Shown here piece after piece: positions 1,923 to 8,056 of a DNA stretch of 8,360 nt. The notes beneath the pieces are model-generated. The model did not search any database. It was given only the letters and a program-made list of their open reading frames with translations, and was not told where the DNA came from. Position 1 is the first letter of the stretch; every line of letters starts with the position of its first letter. Source of the stretch: an uncultured Gammaproteobacteria bacterium (GTDB lineage: Bacteria; Patescibacteriota; Microgenomatia; Daviesbacterales; UBA10151); contig CAZFVS010000044.1 in assembly GCA_964522265.1 (NCBI GenBank), positions 1-8,360 of the forward strand. The letters are read 5' to 3'. A program made the position numbers and the translations under genes.

Positions 1923-3488
1923 ATGTCAAAATCAATTGAGATAACAGACCTGGACAAAATTAAACAGGTTGTAGGCAATATCGTTTCGGATTCTAAAAAT
2001 TTACCGGATACCAGTTATATAGATATCCGTGTTGAAGCAGGCGAGGGAATTGGTTCCTACAGCGAAGATGGTGAACCGAAAAGCACCAGTAAAGATTGGA
2101 ATTTTTCCCTAGGTGTGAGGGTCATCGCCGGAAAACAGATTTTAGCTGCAGGCTACTACGGCAAACAGTTGGGGGCAGCGGACCTTAAAAAATTTTCCAT
2201 TACGGCCAGGGAGGCTATCGCCATCGCTCATGAGCGTGCTGCAGCAAATGCATTTTACAAAAATGGGTTTGTCAAGAATTGGGGTGATTTTGGCCACACC
2301 GTCAATCCGACAAATCTTGCCCCAATTGAAATTCATAACCAAACTATAGCAGCAGAGTATGAGATTGATCCCCGCTCGATAACCCCTGAAAACATCACAG
2401 ATTATGCTTGTGACTGCGCCAGAGTTGCTAAAAACCATCATCCGAATATTAAAAGGGTGGAGCTTGTAGTAAACACCGGCATCTCCCGCCAGATCTTTGC
2501 TTCATCCGAAGGATCTCTAATAGATCAATCATTTGCTTCAAGCGGGGGGACCGTTTTTGTAGTTGCAGCAGATGATCAGGGCGGCAAACCAGTGGATTTA
2601 TATCACCATACCGGCAATCAGCTTGGGTTTGAAGCCTTAATTCAAGGTAAAAATTCCCACGAAAAAAACTTTGCGCAGTTTGCGGAACAGATCGCAGAAG
2701 AAGCATTGCAACTCAGCCGGGCTAAACCAGCTCCGGCAACAGATAAGCAGGTAGTTGTTGTTTTAGATCCGGATCTTCTCGCCCTTTTTGCCCATGAAAT
2801 AATCGGGCATCCTTCTGAACTGGACAGAGCCTTAAAAATGGAAGCAGGGTATGCGGGCAGGTCCTGGTTTTTACAGGACTTAAACCATACAATGGTTGGC
2901 AAACAGGTTGGTTCAAAAATTTTAACCGCTTTCTCCGATCCAACCCTTAAAGGAGGTTATGGCCACTATCTTTATGATGATGAAGGCACTCCTGCCAAGA
3001 GAGTTTACCATATTAAAAACGGCATCTATCGTGATTTTATGAACAGCCGCCAGACAGCCGGCATCATCGGCGCCAAACCAAACGGGCATTACAAAGCAAA
3101 TGACGCCTCAGTCATCCCCGTAATCAGGATGTCTGTTTCTGCGATAGCACCCGGAGATCAAGACCCCCAAAAAATCATATCCGAAGTAGAACACGGCTAC
3201 TATTGTGTGGGCCACCGGATCCCGTCAATCTCTGAATCCAGGGAAAATTTTCAGATCGCTCCAAGGCTTATTTATGAAATTAAAAACGGGCAGATTGGAG
3301 AAGTCTTCCGCGATGGCAGGGTCACTGCAGATTCCAAAGATTTTTTTCTGTCGATTGATGCTTTGGGGAAGGATTTTAAAATATTTGCCATACCAAATTG
3401 TGGTAAAGGTCAGCCGATGCAGGCAAAACAGGTCGGTAACGGCGGGCCTACTGCCAGAGGCAGAGCCAGAATAGCAAGGGGGGAATGA
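1923..3488 (+). CDS. tldD: TldD-family zinc metalloprotease (521 aa)
   Basis: The 521-aa ORF has an HExxxH motif, HEIIGH, at nt 2793-2810 (res 291-296). It also has the conserved C-terminal TldD motif N-C-G-K-G-Q-P...GNGGP, with the Cys codon at 3399-3401. It is paired with a PmbA-like gene through an ATGA overlap, as is typical of tldD/tldE. Confidence 0.85.
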   Translation: MSKSIEITDLDKIKQVVGNIVSDSKNLPDTSYIDIRVEAGEGIGSYSEDGEPKSTSKDWNFSLGVRVIAGKQILAAGYYGKQLGAADLKKFSITAREAIAIAHERAAANAFYKNGFVKNWGDFGHTVNPTNLAPIEIHNQTIAAEYEIDPRSITPENITDYACDCARVAKNHHPNIKRVELVVNTGISRQIFASSEGSLIDQSFASSGGTVFVVAADDQGGKPVDLYHHTGNQLGFEALIQGKNSHEKNFAQFAEQIAEEALQLSRAKPAPATDKQVVVVLDPDLLALFAHEIIGHPSELDRALKMEAGYAGRSWFLQDLNHTMVGKQVGSKILTAFSDPTLKGGYGHYLYDDEGTPAKRVYHIKNGIYRDFMNSRQTAGIIGAKPNGHYKANDASVIPVIRMSVSAIAPGDQDPQKIISEVEHGYYCVGHRIPSISESRENFQIAPRLIYEIKNGQIGEVFRDGRVTADSKDFFLSIDALGKDFKIFAIPNCGKGQPMQAKQVGNGGPTARGRARIARGE

Positions 3489-5044
3489 ATATGCAGAGTT
3501 TGGAAAAACTGAGAGAAACCACCAAACAGGGGATAGAGATTATAAAAAAGCAGCCGAATATGATCGAAGGCTTAGTGTATGCATCATCTAATTCCAGGAC
3601 TGTCGGCCGCATTGTTTATACCACCCATATCTCCTGCAATGGGGTGGAAGAGTTGAAATCGGATGAAGACTTTGGGGTGGCTGTCGAAATCTGGTTTAAA
3701 AAAGGCAAAAAGAAACTTCTCGGATTCGGACACGAACCAAACGATTTAAGCTTAGCAGGCGTCAAGAAGGCCTTAAAAAAGGCCAAAAGAGACGCTGTAG
3801 AAGATAAGGATTTTAACGGTTTTTTAAAACCCGCGGATTTTCCTCCACGCCAAAAACAACTCAAGACAAATTACCATGATCAACAGGTTATGAATATGAC
3901 TTTTACAGATGAAGCGCAGCTTCTTGCAAAATTAAGCTGGGAAACAATAAGCGGCGCTGTTGACGCAACTATTCCGTTTGCGAAAAAGCATAAGAAATCA
4001 CCTGAGGATCTATCCTTTATCTTAAACGGCGATAACTTTATTATCAAAGAAAGGATGGCGCTTGAGACAACCAATGGTATCTCAGACTCGGATGAAACAA
4101 CCGTCATCCTGTCGTTTTTAACTGCTATGCTGGAAAAAGAAAACTCCAAAGGCTCTTCCTGGGGAGGAAGATTAAAATTCGGCGACGACTTTTCTGCTTA
4201 TGAAATCGGCAAACGGGCTGCTCTGGCAGCCATAAACGGTATCGGAGGAACCCGCATACCTTCCGGAAAATACCAGGTGGTATTCGGTCATCAGGCAGTA
4301 ACGGAACTGTTTAGTCTGCTTGCCGGCCATCTCAATTTGGGGATGGTTGATATGGGGGCAACAATATTTTTAGGCAGATACGGACAAATGGTTGCCTCTG
4401 AAAATTTGACATTATATGACGATGCCACCCTGGAGGGAGGAGCCGGATCAAAGAGGATTACTTGTGAAGGTTGTCCAACAGGCAAAACCCTCCTCATTGA
4501 TAAAGGTGTACTCACGGGGTATTTAACAGATTGGCGCACTGCAACCAAAGTTTTAAATAAAAAACAGGAATCCTCCCGAAAACTGGGGGTTGACCCTCAT
4601 GAAATAAGACATGCCTTAAGCCCTAATAATGGTTTCCGTTTTGCCAGGGGAGGAGGCAGGGTAGCAAGCTCAGGAATTGGAATCAATGCAACAAACCTGG
4701 TTGTGGACAGCCCAAAACCATTACCCCCTGAGAGAATCATCAAGGATGTAGAAGACGGTGTATTCATCGGCAGACTTTGGTACACATATCCCGTGGGAGG
4801 ATACTCTTCAGGAATAATTTCCGGCACTGCAGTTGCAGACTGTTACAGAATAAAAAATGGCAAATTATCCGAACCAATTTTGCCAAACACCTTAAGGCTG
4901 GAAGATAATTTAGGCGAGATGATTAAAAATATCATGGCTGTGGGCAACAACCGCGAGCAGACTATCCTTTGGGCCTCTGACGAGATCACCCATGCTCCCT
5001 GGGTGGCAATAAAAGATGTAAATCTTGTTTCAATTGCAGAATAG
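3485..5044 (+). CDS. pmbA: PmbA/TldE-family protein, the non-catalytic partner of TldD (519 aa)
   Basis: The 519-aa ORF has TldD/PmbA-like C-terminal features (GxxxGRLWYT..., G-rich segments) but no HExxxH motif. Its start ATG 3485-3487 overlaps the tldD TGA 3486-3488. An alternative start at ATG 3491 lies 7 nt after the G-run AAGGGGGG (3476-3483), which is a better SD spacing, so the true start may be 3491. Confidence 0.75.
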   Translation: MNMQSLEKLRETTKQGIEIIKKQPNMIEGLVYASSNSRTVGRIVYTTHISCNGVEELKSDEDFGVAVEIWFKKGKKKLLGFGHEPNDLSLAGVKKALKKAKRDAVEDKDFNGFLKPADFPPRQKQLKTNYHDQQVMNMTFTDEAQLLAKLSWETISGAVDATIPFAKKHKKSPEDLSFILNGDNFIIKERMALETTNGISDSDETTVILSFLTAMLEKENSKGSSWGGRLKFGDDFSAYEIGKRAALAAINGIGGTRIPSGKYQVVFGHQAVTELFSLLAGHLNLGMVDMGATIFLGRYGQMVASENLTLYDDATLEGGAGSKRITCEGCPTGKTLLIDKGVLTGYLTDWRTATKVLNKKQESSRKLGVDPHEIRHALSPNNGFRFARGGGRVASSGIGINATNLVVDSPKPLPPERIIKDVEDGVFIGRLWYTYPVGGYSSGIISGTAVADCYRIKNGKLSEPILPNTLRLEDNLGEMIKNIMAVGNNREQTILWASDEITHAPWVAIKDVNLVSIAE

Positions 5045-5068
5045 GAAACAACTGGCAATCTGCCAATT

Positions 5069-6619
5069 TCAATTTGTATAGTCTCTGATAAATCTACCAT
5101 TTCTATATACTCTTGTTGGCACATCATAAACATTGACAACACCAGTTCTAAGGTTAAACATTCCATATACAAAATCTGCTTCAGTATTATAATTACCTTC
5201 CCTATAACCAAATTGTATTTTCAAAGATAATTGACCCTCTATCTCTTCAATTATTATACCTTGTCGTTTAAGAAAAGCTTTATAATCAGCAGCGTGAATA
5301 TCTATATCTCTTAATTCCAAGGATAACATCTGAGCTAATCCATTCTTTACTCCTGTAAAACATGAAACCAAACCAATGGCTGCATCTTGAGTAAAAGCAT
5401 CTCTTAATTTGCCTAAATTTCTCAACTGAGTATCGATATTGGCTCCACCTAAACCAATACTGGATCCTGATTCATCTTCTCCGCCTAAATTTATAAAGTC
5501 AGTGTCTCCATGAGCCATTAGTAACATATAGGCAATTCCTCCATGATTGTTTGCAGCACTTCTAATTACTCTGGAAATATCTTCAACATTTCCGGCTTCA
5601 TATACTTTTAGTCCATATCCAATTGCTTTAACCTGTTTAAAGGCATGAGTTATTTGTTCTTTCTCTTTATAAGCCACCCCATTGATATCGTGCTGTGCTC
5701 CAATAATAATTCCATATGGAATATCCTGTTTTTCGTAGAAATCATACTGCTCTATTAATAAATCTAAGGGGTATCTAAAAAAGCTTAAAATTCCATACCT
5801 ATTGATTAAAATTTTGGTTATTCCTGGTCTCGTTTTTTCCAATTGACAAATAAGCCCAAAATTATCAAAATATATTGATTCACTGCCTTTGGTTCTATCT
5901 TGTGTTTTTCCTACTGAATCATCCCAAGCATTCATTATTCTGGTAGATTGTTCTCCTGTTAATTCATCCAAAACAGCTGCCATCCGCAGTGGCCTGTCAT
6001 ATGTATTACTTCCCAAAACACCTAAATTAAGAATTGAATTTACCTGTCGGGAAAATCTTCTTGATAGGGCTCTATCTGGGGTGATTGCAGCTCTTACAAG
6101 TCCTTTAATTTGCTGAGGAGTCCCCGTTGCAATTAACCGTTTTACAGCATTTTCAACTTCTCTGTCGCTAATCTTCTCAGTTTCTAATAAAAGATTAAAA
6201 TTGTTTGTTATTATTCCATCTGCTATTGCCACCAACTTTGGATCAGGCATATCCCCAAAAGAATGGGCCAATTTAAATGCTGGCGCAAGATATGTACCAG
6301 GCTCTTGTTGAATATAACTATTTATATCCTGAAGAATAATTTGTGCAAAAGCGGGAATTGCATCTACCAAATCTCTGTTGGATGAAGTCCGTCTCATTTT
6401 AGACAGACGTTCTAATAAATTCAGAGTCGTTGTAAAATGAGGCGTTCCTAAGGACAATTTGAACAAGTGCATGCTTTCTTGTATTACAGCAGCAACCGAG
6501 GTTGCCTTATCTATACTCATAAAACCTGCATTTAATGCATCTCCACAACTCCTTAAAGCTTCTTCATAAGCAGTAAGATCAAAATCCTGCCGTAATATTC
6601 TATCTGATTGTTCAACCAT
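5069..6619 (-). CDS. Hypothetical protein (~516 aa): helical N-terminal region plus a C-terminal domain with a caspase/CHAT-like His...Cys dyad (putative clan CD-like cysteine peptidase)
   Basis: This is a long uninterrupted ORF. I place the start at ATG 6619-6617 (MVEQSD...) rather than the track's TTG at 6655, because that TTG is the first half of a perfect -35 box. The C-terminal third alternates hydrophobic strands with catalytic-looking residues: YGIIIGAQHD; AYMLLMA-H-GD (His codon 5510-5512); 50 residues later, AIGLVS-C-FTG (Cys codon 5360-5362). I recognise no family for the N-terminal ~300 aa. No obvious signal peptide or TM segment was seen. Confidence 0.8.
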   Translation of the reverse strand: MVEQSDRILRQDFDLTAYEEALRSCGDALNAGFMSIDKATSVAAVIQESMHLFKLSLGTPHFTTTLNLLERLSKMRRTSSNRDLVDAIPAFAQIILQDINSYIQQEPGTYLAPAFKLAHSFGDMPDPKLVAIADGIITNNFNLLLETEKISDREVENAVKRLIATGTPQQIKGLVRAAITPDRALSRRFSRQVNSILNLGVLGSNTYDRPLRMAAVLDELTGEQSTRIMNAWDDSVGKTQDRTKGSESIYFDNFGLICQLEKTRPGITKILINRYGILSFFRYPLDLLIEQYDFYEKQDIPYGIIIGAQHDINGVAYKEKEQITHAFKQVKAIGYGLKVYEAGNVEDISRVIRSAANNHGGIAYMLLMAHGDTDFINLGGEDESGSSIGLGGANIDTQLRNLGKLRDAFTQDAAIGLVSCFTGVKNGLAQMLSLELRDIDIHAADYKAFLKRQGIIIEEIEGQLSLKIQFGYREGNYNTEADFVYGMFNLRTGVVNVYDVPTRVYRNGRFIRDYTN

Positions 6620-6655
6620 GTTGCGTATTATAAGATATTCTATACGCAGTGTCAA
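6620..6655 (-). promoter_or_regulatory. Consensus sigma70-type promoter driving a probable leaderless mRNA
   Basis: The minus strand reads TTGACA (6655-6650), a 17-nt spacer, TATAAT (6632-6627), then ACGCAAC (7 nt), then ATG (6619-6617). Both hexamers are perfect consensus with optimal spacing. No SD is present between the -10 box and the ATG. Confidence 0.6.
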
Positions 6656-6680
6656 ATACCCTAAGCTATGAGTTCAGTTC

Positions 6681-6772
6681 TTCCCAGTGTCATCCCCGCG
6701 AAAGCGGGAATCCATACCAATAATTATTTGTATAGATTCCGTGTCAAGCACGGAATGACAATGTACTGGGAA
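6681..6772. repeat. Nested composite palindromic element (REP/MITE-like), non-coding
   Basis: The outer inverted repeat is TTCCCAGT (6681-6688) / ACTGGGAA (6765-6772). An inner repeat is GTCAT (6689-6693) / ATGAC (6755-6759). Hairpin 1 is CCCGC-GAAA-GCGGG (6695-6708). Hairpin 2 is ATTCCGTG-TCAAG-CACGGAAT (6736-6756). An alternative central stem pairs GGAATCCATAC (6707-6717) with GTATAGATTCC (6730-6740), 10/11 bp. The element is locally GC-rich within an AT-rich intergenic region. Confidence 0.8.
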
Positions 6773-6944
6773 ACTCTGAATAGTTACCCCTAAGCGGGAT
6801 ACCAATGTTGGCAACTGTCTTAAATGTGGACGAAGTTTTTACGAGCGCAGCGCGTACTCCACGAAGCGGAAGAATCACCAACTAGTCTTGCATTCTGAAG
6901 TAAATCTAAAACCCTACTACCTTCTTGTAAAGGATCAACTCTAT

Positions 6945-7475
6945 TTAGACGGTTATTGTGTCTTCTTCTAACAAATGCATCCTCTCCATATCGTACGGGT
7001 TGATAATAACCATATATGTAGAAGTCAAGGACATTTGCGACATCCCTCCTTTCTCAATTAAATATTGTAATGGACTTTTAAGGTCTAAAGATTTATGTGG
7101 CCTCACTGTGTTATACCAGATTAAATACTCAGCCAGTTTCTGGTTAAGTAATACTTTGTCATCCAAAATGTCTAAATTATTATCAATAAATTCTTCCTGA
7201 ATAGTCCTGTTATATCTTTCAATGTAGGTCTGGATTTTAGGACAGTGTGGGTAGGAGAAATAATGGGTAATCTGATCCTGTTTTAGGGCATCATCAAACT
7301 CCCCAAGATTCTCTGCCCCATTATCTGTCTGCCAAGTTTTAACTACTCCCGGATACACACTTTTAAACCTCTGGTAAAAATCCTTCATGTTTCTGGAACT
7401 TAATCTCTGACTTCTACAAAAATTTGCATTTTTAGGGCGGTTGTGATAATATAATTGTACTAAAATCTCCTGCAA
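6945..7475 (-). pseudogene. N-terminally truncated rve-type (DDE) transposase/integrase remnant, IS481/IS3-superfamily-like
   Basis: The 176-aa ORF contains WQTDNGAENLGEF (second Asp of the DDE triad). The motif IERYNRTIQEEF follows, with its Glu exactly 35 residues after that Asp. The typical C-terminal YNTVRPHKSL..SP motif is also present. The first catalytic Asp and the N-terminal HTH region are absent. The frame is closed by TGA at 7517-7515, and the listed TTG start is arbitrary. Confidence 0.75.
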
Positions 7476-7516: not shown

Positions 7517-8056
7517 ATGACTAATAAAAAGTGCATTATCCTCATCGATGGCAGTAACCTTTTCTTCAAACTAAAAGACCTACAACTTCATAATCTGTTG
7601 AGTCTGAATTTCTCAGCCTTTACCAAAAAGTTAGCTAAGAACTGTGAAGTTGTTAAATCCATCTACTATGTAGGAAAAATCAGAACAGATGGTATCAAGA
7701 AAACCCAGGAAATGCATACTAATCAGCAAAAATTATTTGAGCATCTTAAAAAACATAAAGTCTCCTATTCTTTAGGTTATCTTTTAAAATCCGATGGTAA
7801 ATTCCATGAAAAAGGGGTAGATGTAAATATTGCAGTTGATATGTTGGTTGCCACTTATGAGAATTTAGCCGATAGAATAATTCTTGTTTCTTCTGATACT
7901 GATTTACTTCCAGCTATTAAGAAGGCCAAAGAAAAAGGTAAATGGGTTGAATATATTGGATTTTCTCACCAACCTTCAATTGCTATGGTAGCTAATTGTT
8001 CAGAATCAACATTATTTAAGAGAGAAGATATAGCGCCGTTTATAGAAAAACATTAA
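7517..8056 (+). CDS. NYN-domain (LabA-like, PIN-related) putative ribonuclease, 179 aa
   Basis: The ORF carries the NYN/LabA signature blocks: CIILIDGSNL (N-terminal Asp), KGVDVNIAVDM, and IILVSSDTDLLPAIKKAKEKGKWVEYIGF (SxDxD followed by a G-K-x-V strand). Confidence 0.85.
   Translation: MTNKKCIILIDGSNLFFKLKDLQLHNLLSLNFSAFTKKLAKNCEVVKSIYYVGKIRTDGIKKTQEMHTNQQKLFEHLKKHKVSYSLGYLLKSDGKFHEKGVDVNIAVDMLVATYENLADRIILVSSDTDLLPAIKKAKEKGKWVEYIGFSHQPSIAMVANCSESTLFKREDIAPFIEKH

Follow-up and report, generated by a model that had tools for sequence, protein, structure and literature searches.

The gene on the minus strand at 5069-6619 of the DNA stretch analysed here (contig CAZFVS010000044.1 of assembly GCA_964522265.1, 8,360 nt in all, hereafter the window) raises a simple question: what is a protein that no curated family covers, and what could it do? 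A first reading of the stretch, made from its letters only (the sequence-only reading), had described the product as an orphan with a caspase- or CHAT-like pair of His and Cys residues. The present analysis places it in a new and very large family within the known clan CD of peptidases, and points to a probable cysteine endopeptidase, the family being a distant sister of DUF4347 (with Tce1) and of C80. In the list of open reading frames (ORFs) the gene spans 5069-6655 on the minus strand and 528 amino acids (aa) if read from a TTG, which coincides with the opening three bases of a -35 hexamer. The ATG at 6617-6619 is the start supported by alignment with homologues of 48-51% identity, and gives the protein of about 516 aa that had been proposed. 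The parts of the gene on which the argument turns are the following, with conservation counted over 153 family representatives, none of them more than 50% identical to another:

5069-6619, minus strand: coding sequence of the 516-aa protein, from the ATG at 6617-6619 to the TGA stop at 5069-5071 (codons verified)
5936-6619, minus strand: residues 1-228, a hypervariable region predicted as an all-helical ARM/HEAT-like solenoid (AlphaFold2, or AF2, model; Foldseek; identity)
5726-5935, minus strand: residues 229-298, a conserved family-specific helical subdomain (153 representatives; four modelled helices with a predicted local distance difference test score, pLDDT, of 96-99)
5072-5725, minus strand: residues 299-516, the predicted clan CD alpha/beta core and a C-terminal beta-hairpin region (AF2, Foldseek)
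5687-5689, minus strand: codon of Asp311, directly after strand beta-1 of the model, conserved in 149 of 153
5597-5599, minus strand: codon of Glu341, at the end of strand beta-2, conserved in 153 of 153
5510-5512, minus strand: CAT codon of His370, the predicted catalytic His, invariant (153 of 153) and followed by Gly371 (148 of 153)
5360-5362, minus strand: TGT codon of Cys420, the predicted nucleophile within the motif L-x-S-C-S/F-T-G, invariant (153 of 153)

The two residues that drew attention to this protein lie in the motifs YMLLMAHGD and IGLVSCFTG, with His370 and Cys420 separated by exactly 50 residues, so that the motifs, both codon positions and the spacing are those of the sequence-only reading. 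Its proposal that both residues close a strand also stood, as His370 and Cys420 are each found two residues beyond predicted beta-strands of the AF2 model (362-368 and 409-418). This arrangement, with the His before the Cys, each of them after a hydrophobic strand, and a Gly following the His, is the one that characterises clan CD. Conservation among homologues, which had been suggested as a check, turned out to be complete for both residues and far exceeds chance. Two other positions, Glu341 and Leu288, are equally invariant, and a second group comprising Glu261, Arg282, Tyr283, Gly303, Asp311, Gly371 and Gly423 is conserved in at least 96% of the representatives. The consensus of the family around the dyad reads ISFAIIGGHGT...SI.FG for the His and PTIIL.SCSTG...GIAQ.LS for the Cys. 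Fold matches and alignments, described below, suggest that the two residues would also be close in space.

A model of residues 229-516 obtained with AF2 from a 149-sequence alignment reached a pLDDT of 93.1 and a predicted template-modelling score (pTM) of 0.90, and shows four helices, then an alternating beta-alpha core and finally C-terminal beta-hairpins (strands 449-460 and 463-475). When only 4 sequences were supplied, the N-terminal helices were well modelled and the C-terminal domain stayed at a pLDDT below 50. Comparison of the model with the Protein Data Bank (PDB) by Foldseek revealed that the top 24 matches are all clan CD peptidases, including Tce1/DUF4347, caspases, the cysteine protease domain (CPD) of MARTX toxins, C11 peptidases and CED-3. 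The best match was Tce1 (9qpe_G, E 5.9e-5, TM-score of 0.57 normalised to target length), followed by caspase-11 (1.9e-4) and the V. cholerae MARTX CPD 3gcd (2.7e-4), and then, in this order, by caspase-7, the V. vulnificus MARTX CPD, a Bacteroides C11 peptidase, caspase-4 and CED-3, with MALT1 lower. Caspase-domain proteins were also matched in a viral structure library. These results support a clan CD (caspase-hemoglobinase) fold for the modelled residues 229-516; the structure prediction, which the sequence-only reading had proposed as a way to distinguish it from a Rossmann or an alpha/beta hydrolase fold, thus came out on the side of a caspase-type alpha/beta fold. That reading had also set a C-terminal region apart from the rest of the protein, with a start near residue 300; conservation in fact begins at about residue 229, and the helical subdomain 229-298 precedes the core.

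Sequence profiles led to the same relatives. Among PDB sequences the family profile matched best the DUF4347 protein 9qpe_G (E 0.007), the two His and the two Cys being paired in the alignment, and a comparison of the family profile with a Tce1 fragment by hhalign (E 4.6e-5, probability 68%) returned the same register, in which the HG of the family falls on ATHGT of Tce1 and its SC on YGCD. Altogether three profile methods put His370 and Cys420 on the His and Cys of Tce1, and in the profile search against PDB the His of the caspase-3/-4 'SHG' also aligns with His370. Among 33 family members compared with Pfam, DUF4347 was matched by 9 (best E 1.2e-5) and Peptidase_C80 (PF11713) by one (E 0.0045); one family member, P0049, passes the DUF4347 gathering score (25.0 vs 24.6 bits). 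These profile comparisons show a remote homology of the family to DUF4347 and a more distant one to C80. CHAT (PF12770) was not matched by any of the 33 relatives at E<=0.1, and searches of NCBIfam, PADLOC and PDB sequences with the 516-aa protein gave no matches; nor was there, in these three collections or in Pfam, a confident match to a characterised non-protease family, a result that had been named beforehand as one that would count against a protease. The likeness to caspases, legumains and CHAT domains put forward earlier was therefore right as to the clan, which the AF2 fold, the top 24 Foldseek matches and the invariant dyad all agree on, and wrong as to the closest relatives, which are DUF4347 and C80 rather than CHAT, legumains or caspases proper.

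Several observations weigh against this assignment and against the activity attached to it. Rossmann-type dehydrogenases appear among the Foldseek matches, from rank 25 on, and TM-scores normalised to the query are modest (0.3-0.4). The window protein itself fails the DUF4347 (PF14252) gathering threshold, scoring 14.6 bits (E 0.027) at full length and 15.8 bits with the domain alone against a cutoff of 24.6, and its Pfam search at E<=1 reported no C14 (PF00656), C80 or CHAT. Moreover, Tce1, the closest relative by structure, is itself no more than a putative protease, and the proteolytic activity of the family is a prediction from the fold and the dyad.

The region ahead of the catalytic domain is of a different nature. 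Residues 10-190 are helical in the 4-sequence AF2 run (pLDDT about 80-90), and this solenoid weakly resembles importin-alpha, beta-catenin and CLASP TOG (Foldseek E of about 2e-3 to 1e-2), and a profile of the full-length protein matched through its N-terminal columns designed and natural helical repeats and PUM-HD proteins in PDB, which is non-specific. Mean pairwise identity is 14% in the N-terminal part compared with 35% in the C-terminal domain, and the hypervariable stretch, of about 230-260 aa, yields segments that split into many BLAST singletons. Pfam found nothing in this region, neither a sensor nor a signalling domain. A reading of residues 1-228 as a protein-binding solenoid is weak but consistent with these data. 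A transmembrane-like segment is present in only 3 of the 153 representatives, suggesting that the proteins are soluble. The conserved block opens at Trp232 with the helical subdomain, upstream of the stretch that aligns with DUF4347, and its signature in the window protein is W232...N253...L260-E261...P265-G266...L271...G276-I277...F280-x-R282-Y283-P284...L288...Q291-Y-D293, for which the family consensus between 232 and 293 is W..(N)..LE..RPGI...L...FGI..F.RYP...L..QYD.

The impression of an orphan did not survive a wider search, and proved to be an artefact of the word index. In that index the full protein retrieves 3 relatives (48-51% identity), the C-terminal profile retrieves 10 and the Tce1 fragment 4. 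The closest of the three relatives is a Candidatus Daviesbacteria protein from a metagenome-assembled genome (MAG) with 51% identity, which suggests a Microgenomates-like bacterium as the source of the window. An exhaustive HMMER search with a four-sequence profile raised the number of cluster representatives to 1,464 at E<=1e-3, with 964 left at E<=1e-10; they have in common the C-terminal 250-290 residues or so of proteins typically of about 500 aa, called 'hypothetical protein' where their sources name them. When a profile built from mainstream members was run over genomes, one for each species, it gave 32 loci, which cover nearly all lineages of the Candidate Phyla Radiation (CPR): Paceibacterota, Saccharibacteria, Levy-, Kaiser-, Doudna-, Lipton-, Magasanik-, Moran-, Adler- and Peribacteria, and WS2. 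Another three loci belong to MAGs labelled Omnitrophota, Bdellovibrionales and Gammaproteobacteria, whose members may reflect the true distribution, horizontal transfer or mis-binning. Our literature searches combining Patescibacteria with caspase, and CPR with cysteine protease, returned nothing on the family.

The loci outside the CPR labels show some particular arrangements. In the Candidatus Omnitrophota-labelled MAG (L018:88-12720) one ORF continues without interruption for at least 4,211 aa and past the edge of the locus; it carries an intact family domain, His and Cys included, at aa 1981-2212 and a cluster of winged-helix/helix-turn-helix matches at aa ~2600-3200. In the Gammaproteobacteria-labelled MAG two paralogues of the family stand in tandem (L035:5209-6750 and 6813-8567), and the Bdellovibrionales-labelled one (L034) also carries a family member.

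Comparison with known systems helps to delimit the new family. Tce1 (PA0256) and Tce2 have been described as putative cysteine-protease cargo of the H3 type VI secretion system (H3-T6SS), with a His and a Cys that superpose on the dyad of the TcdB CPD, and the toxicity of Tce2 in yeast is lost in a C115S mutant (PMC13323088). Tce1 from P. aeruginosa, loaded on Hcp3 (9qpe chain G), is both the best structural and the best PDB profile match, and shares with the family a two-part build, in which a protease-like domain at the C-terminus follows a non-catalytic region, as well as His-Gly and Cys motifs in register. In contrast to Tce1, the family has an extra helical subdomain of 70 aa, which is highly conserved, and an ARM/HEAT-like N-terminus of some length, is hosted by CPR bacteria and not by proteobacteria, and lacks a T6SS context, since no T6SS or Hcp genes were seen in the loci examined; the sequences are about 14% identical when aligned by structure and 24% by hhalign. 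The C80 domains of the V. cholerae and V. vulnificus MARTX toxins and of C. difficile TcdA/TcdB resemble the family in fold (matches 3gcd, 8yjc, 3eeb and 3fzy), in the order of His and Cys with a spacing of ~45-55 residues and in the position of the protease C-terminal to a variable cargo, and one relative has its domain embedded in a giant protein. Unlike them, the window protein does not match PF11713 (E<=1) and is not part of a recognisable toxin. Its modelled C-terminal hairpin (449-460 and 463-475) is a candidate counterpart of the beta-flap that goes with the basic InsP6-binding pocket of C80.

With caspases (C14) the family shares fold matches (caspase-11, -7, -4, -3, -8, -9, CED-3 and MALT1), the His-Gly after a hydrophobic strand and the Cys after the next parallel strand. 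However, its Cys motif is L-x-S-C-S-T-G (V-S-C-F-T-G in the window) and not Q-A-C-x-G, PF00656 is not matched, the hidden Markov model alignment places the Cys one residue away from that of caspase-4, neither p20/p10 processing nor dimerisation is in evidence for the family, and the residues conserved near the expected S1 positions are acidic instead of basic. CHAT (PF12770) belongs to the same clan CD and has the same His...Cys order, but no Pfam match links it to the family, no CHAT structure is found among the fold matches listed, and the family shows no association with TPR-CHAT, CRISPR or other signalling partners. One CPR-wide conserved cysteine protease was found in the literature, CPR-C4, presented in the title of its report as a 'highly conserved novel protease from the Candidate Phyla Radiation' and as vasohibin-like (PMC9108980). 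Going by that title its fold would be unrelated, and neither the sequence nor the structure matches of the family include it.

How such a protein might work can be outlined by analogy with its clan. It would be a soluble, stand-alone enzyme in two parts, the solenoid (1-228) and a conserved catalytic module (229-516) in which the four-helix subdomain would pack onto the clan CD alpha/beta core. As in other clan CD peptidases, Cys420 would act as the nucleophile, and the His of His370-Gly371 as general acid/base. Residues after beta-1 often shape the S1 pocket in clan CD enzymes, and here Asp311 and Glu341 probably line this pocket or orient the His; an acidic pair in S1 would favour a basic P1 residue. 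The fast-evolving solenoid most likely recognises the substrate or a partner, or else keeps the protease latent. Transcription would start from a consensus sigma-70 promoter, probably to give a leaderless mRNA, and cleavage may take place either in trans (the mode proposed for Tce1/2) or in cis (that of the C80 toxins). The analysis shows the class of fold, the conservation of the dyad, the remote homology to DUF4347, the distribution and the lack of conserved partner genes; proteolysis, the roles of the residues and of the solenoid, and leaderless translation are inferred from these and from related enzymes.

Cleavage in cis deserves separate consideration as a special case of the protease reading and not an alternative to it. 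In C80 toxins the CPD frees the glucosyltransferase domain of TcdA/B and the effector domains of MARTX toxins, and an equivalent domain in the family would cut its own chain near the boundary when triggered by a cofactor, thereby releasing the N-terminal solenoid as an effector. TcdA/B likewise place a variable N-terminal cargo before the protease, the MARTX CPDs 3gcd, 8yjc and 3eeb are among the best fold matches, one member matches Peptidase_C80, the Omnitrophota-labelled giant ORF reproduces a MARTX-like embedding of the domain, and the N-terminal part evolves much faster than the rest. A semi-conserved [YF]-G-[LIV]-D motif found 8-11 residues before W232 lends weak support, C80 enzymes being known to cleave after Leu; but this motif is conserved only in ~45%, and its equivalent in the clade of the window, VLDELT, falls in a predicted helix, which is atypical for a cleavage loop. 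The C80 activator InsP6 (inositol hexakisphosphate) is not known to be produced by bacteria, nothing close by encodes a secretion signal or a delivery system, and the nearest relatives Tce1 and Tce2 are thought to act in trans, so that self-processing appears somewhat unlikely. The fold could also serve a different chemistry, such as transamidation or ligation, deamidation, acyl transfer or a thioester-type reaction, or it could have become a regulatory pseudo-protease scaffold. Clan CD does contain a transamidase, the GPI-transamidase subunit (MEROPS family C13), the activities of the family and of Tce1 are only predicted, and the extra helical subdomain with Glu261, Arg282 and Tyr283, which has no counterpart in the DUF4347 region, could form a different active site. 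However, all significant structural relatives are endopeptidases, and the conservation of the dyad with its His-Gly and Ser-Cys context across 153 diverse sequences speaks against a pseudo-enzyme; we regard this whole group of possibilities as quite unlikely.

The sequence-only reading had also suggested, as speculation, a role in a conflict system and links to the neighbouring genes. CHAT and caspase-like proteases do serve CRISPR type III, CBASS or Avs-type systems, the gene adjoins a transposase remnant and a repeat element, and the nearby NYN protein matches the PADLOC candidate model HEC-09 (E 9.4e-18), from which a defence effector coupled to NYN, TldD/TldE and the remnant could be imagined. 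The neighbours named in that reading are confirmed by Pfam as a TldD/TldE pair, the NYN protein and a truncated rve_3 integrase core (176 aa); the window also contains a GH1 glycosidase. Their association with the gene is another matter. In a context set formed by the window, five independent loci of its own clade and the 32 genome loci (~35 independent loci), 4-5 loci is the most in which any one neighbouring gene family recurs, and neither NYN nor TldD/E nor rve is met again beside the homologues, by which links to TldD/E, NYN and the transposase are rejected. The protein itself has no match in PADLOC (PADLOC-DB v2), its N-terminal region, without a Pfam match, offers no sensor or signalling domain, its close homologues have housekeeping genes around them (L19, RNase HII, DnaE, GatCAB, CTP synthase), and tblastn found no match in phage and plasmid collections. 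The suggestion is thus largely refuted by the absence of a conserved context, and a defence role coupled to these neighbours seems very unlikely. The family gene is a stand-alone chromosomal single-gene function, not part of an operon or of a multi-gene system, and the preferred reading of it continues to be a single cysteine endopeptidase acting by itself.

Other candidates considered for its context were discarded. Hypothetical genes of ~200 aa found by close homologues are unrelated to one another and to the window, and do not represent a conserved partner; MreB is present within a few kb in only 4 loci, which was treated as chance; and an origin in mobile elements was rejected, given the same tblastn searches of phage and plasmid collections. 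One locus, L042 (2322-7926; 10996-17470), has an arrangement not seen at the others: the homologue P0010 is located downstream of six hypothetical genes, at least 3 of them with signal-peptide-like N-termini, and near a gene for a 2,909-aa product that runs off the end of the locus and shows faint phage-integrase SAM-like matches.

CPR bacteria (Patescibacteria) make up a large share of bacterial diversity and have tiny genomes and a host-dependent life, with most of their conserved genes lacking an assigned function. A family of more than 1,400 clusters in almost every sampled CPR lineage, yet covered by no Pfam, NCBIfam or PADLOC model, thus provides a handle on a protein that small genomes keep despite strong reduction, and its assignment to the caspase/C80/DUF4347 clan, together with the invariant dyad, offers a concrete and testable biochemical hypothesis. 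The fold as such is unsurprising; the value lies in the size of the family, its CPR-wide spread, the hypervariable recognition domain and a likely leaderless high-level expression. It would also extend the sparsely populated DUF4347/Tce branch of clan CD far beyond the proteobacterial T6SS effectors. That a conserved protease is joined to a hypervariable protein-binding solenoid points to a recognition of targets that evolves rapidly, and this would be relevant to the interaction with the host. Carried one step further, these could be latent, self-processing C80/Tce-like proteins of the whole CPR in which the caspase-fold module senses a cue of the host cell and cuts to release or activate a host-manipulating solenoid effector, a speculative picture to which we give a small chance. 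It would amount to a bacterial-host analogue of InsP6-triggered toxin autoprocessing, the cue being a protein or metabolite from the bacterium or archaeon on whose surface these epibionts live. The domain would in that case be a tool common to episymbiotic or predatory lifestyles, as it is also present in giant proteins of Omnitrophota, another group of host-dependent nanobacteria, and in the Bdellovibrionales-labelled MAG.

The following features of the window and of the loci of its closest homologues bear on the expression of the gene:

6627-6655, minus strand: sigma-70-type promoter, TTGACA-17-TATAAT, matching the consensus at 12 of 12 positions
5050-5068, no strand assigned: short hairpin between the convergent stops of this gene and the TldE-like gene, with terminator-like sites on both strands
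L001 ~7540-7580, L005 ~700-742 and L006 ~180-206, homologue loci: leaderless layout with TATAAT before the ATG

The consensus promoter announced in the sequence-only reading is indeed perfect, and is the sole such site in the window, where 0.01 would be expected by chance according to dinucleotide-preserving shuffles (3 of 200 shuffles yielded one). Only 7 nt separate the end of the -10 box from the ATG and no Shine-Dalgarno sequence is present, implying a leaderless mRNA; the messenger of the 516-aa protein is probably leaderless, and would be translated as such. A TATAAT ending 7-9 nt 5' of the start ATG, again without a Shine-Dalgarno sequence, is also found in the three closest homologue loci, and its position in L006 indicates that the internal Met9 is the true start there. 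In the family at large, a -10-like box 5-10 nt before a start-proximal ATG was seen for 13 of 35 genes, compared with 20 of 237 other genes of the same loci (Fisher p = 3e-5). The hairpin at 5050-5068 (-8.5 kcal/mol, z = -1.35, which is weak evidence) is possibly a weak bidirectional terminator.

Directly upstream of the promoter lies a nested palindromic element of ~108 nt (6673-6780, both strands), with an outer stem (6673-6688 / 6765-6780) that encloses two inner hairpins and an RNA fold far better than that of shuffles (z = -4.2). Exact copies of its 24-nt hairpin GATTCCCGCTTTCGCGGGGATGAC are present in at least 120 metagenome contigs, whose organisms range from AT-rich to GC-rich, usually as an inverted pair, GTCAT(T/C)CCCGCGAAAGCGGG(A/G)ATCC ... 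GGATTCCCGCTTTCGCGGGGATGAC, 20-40 nt apart. The element looks like a very widespread repeat of the REP (repetitive extragenic palindromic) or dRS3/NIME type, with a resemblance to the dRS3/NIME repeats of Neisseria; a paper on Neisseria contains the hairpin in its consensus (reverse-complement) form, not in the exact sequence of the window. Rfam returned for the element only FtrB, a weak match (E 0.13).

The minus-strand ORF at 6945-7475 (176 aa), just upstream of the palindromic element, contains an integrase core reduced to its C-terminal part (rve_3 E 4e-12, rve_2), and judged from these matches is a truncated transposase remnant. Further on, the NYN protein (7517-8056, plus strand, 179 aa) matches, besides HEC-09, a generic NYN model. 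On the other side of the gene, the TldD/TldE-like pair (1923-5044, plus strand) encodes proteins of 521 and 519 aa with a stop/start overlap at 3485-3488. The gene had been said to sit in an AT-rich stretch; its GC content (0.33-0.38) is that of most of the contig, and the outlier is this pair, with 0.45-0.47 compared with 0.32-0.41 in the rest, which suggests a different origin or a different codon-usage regime for TldD/TldE.

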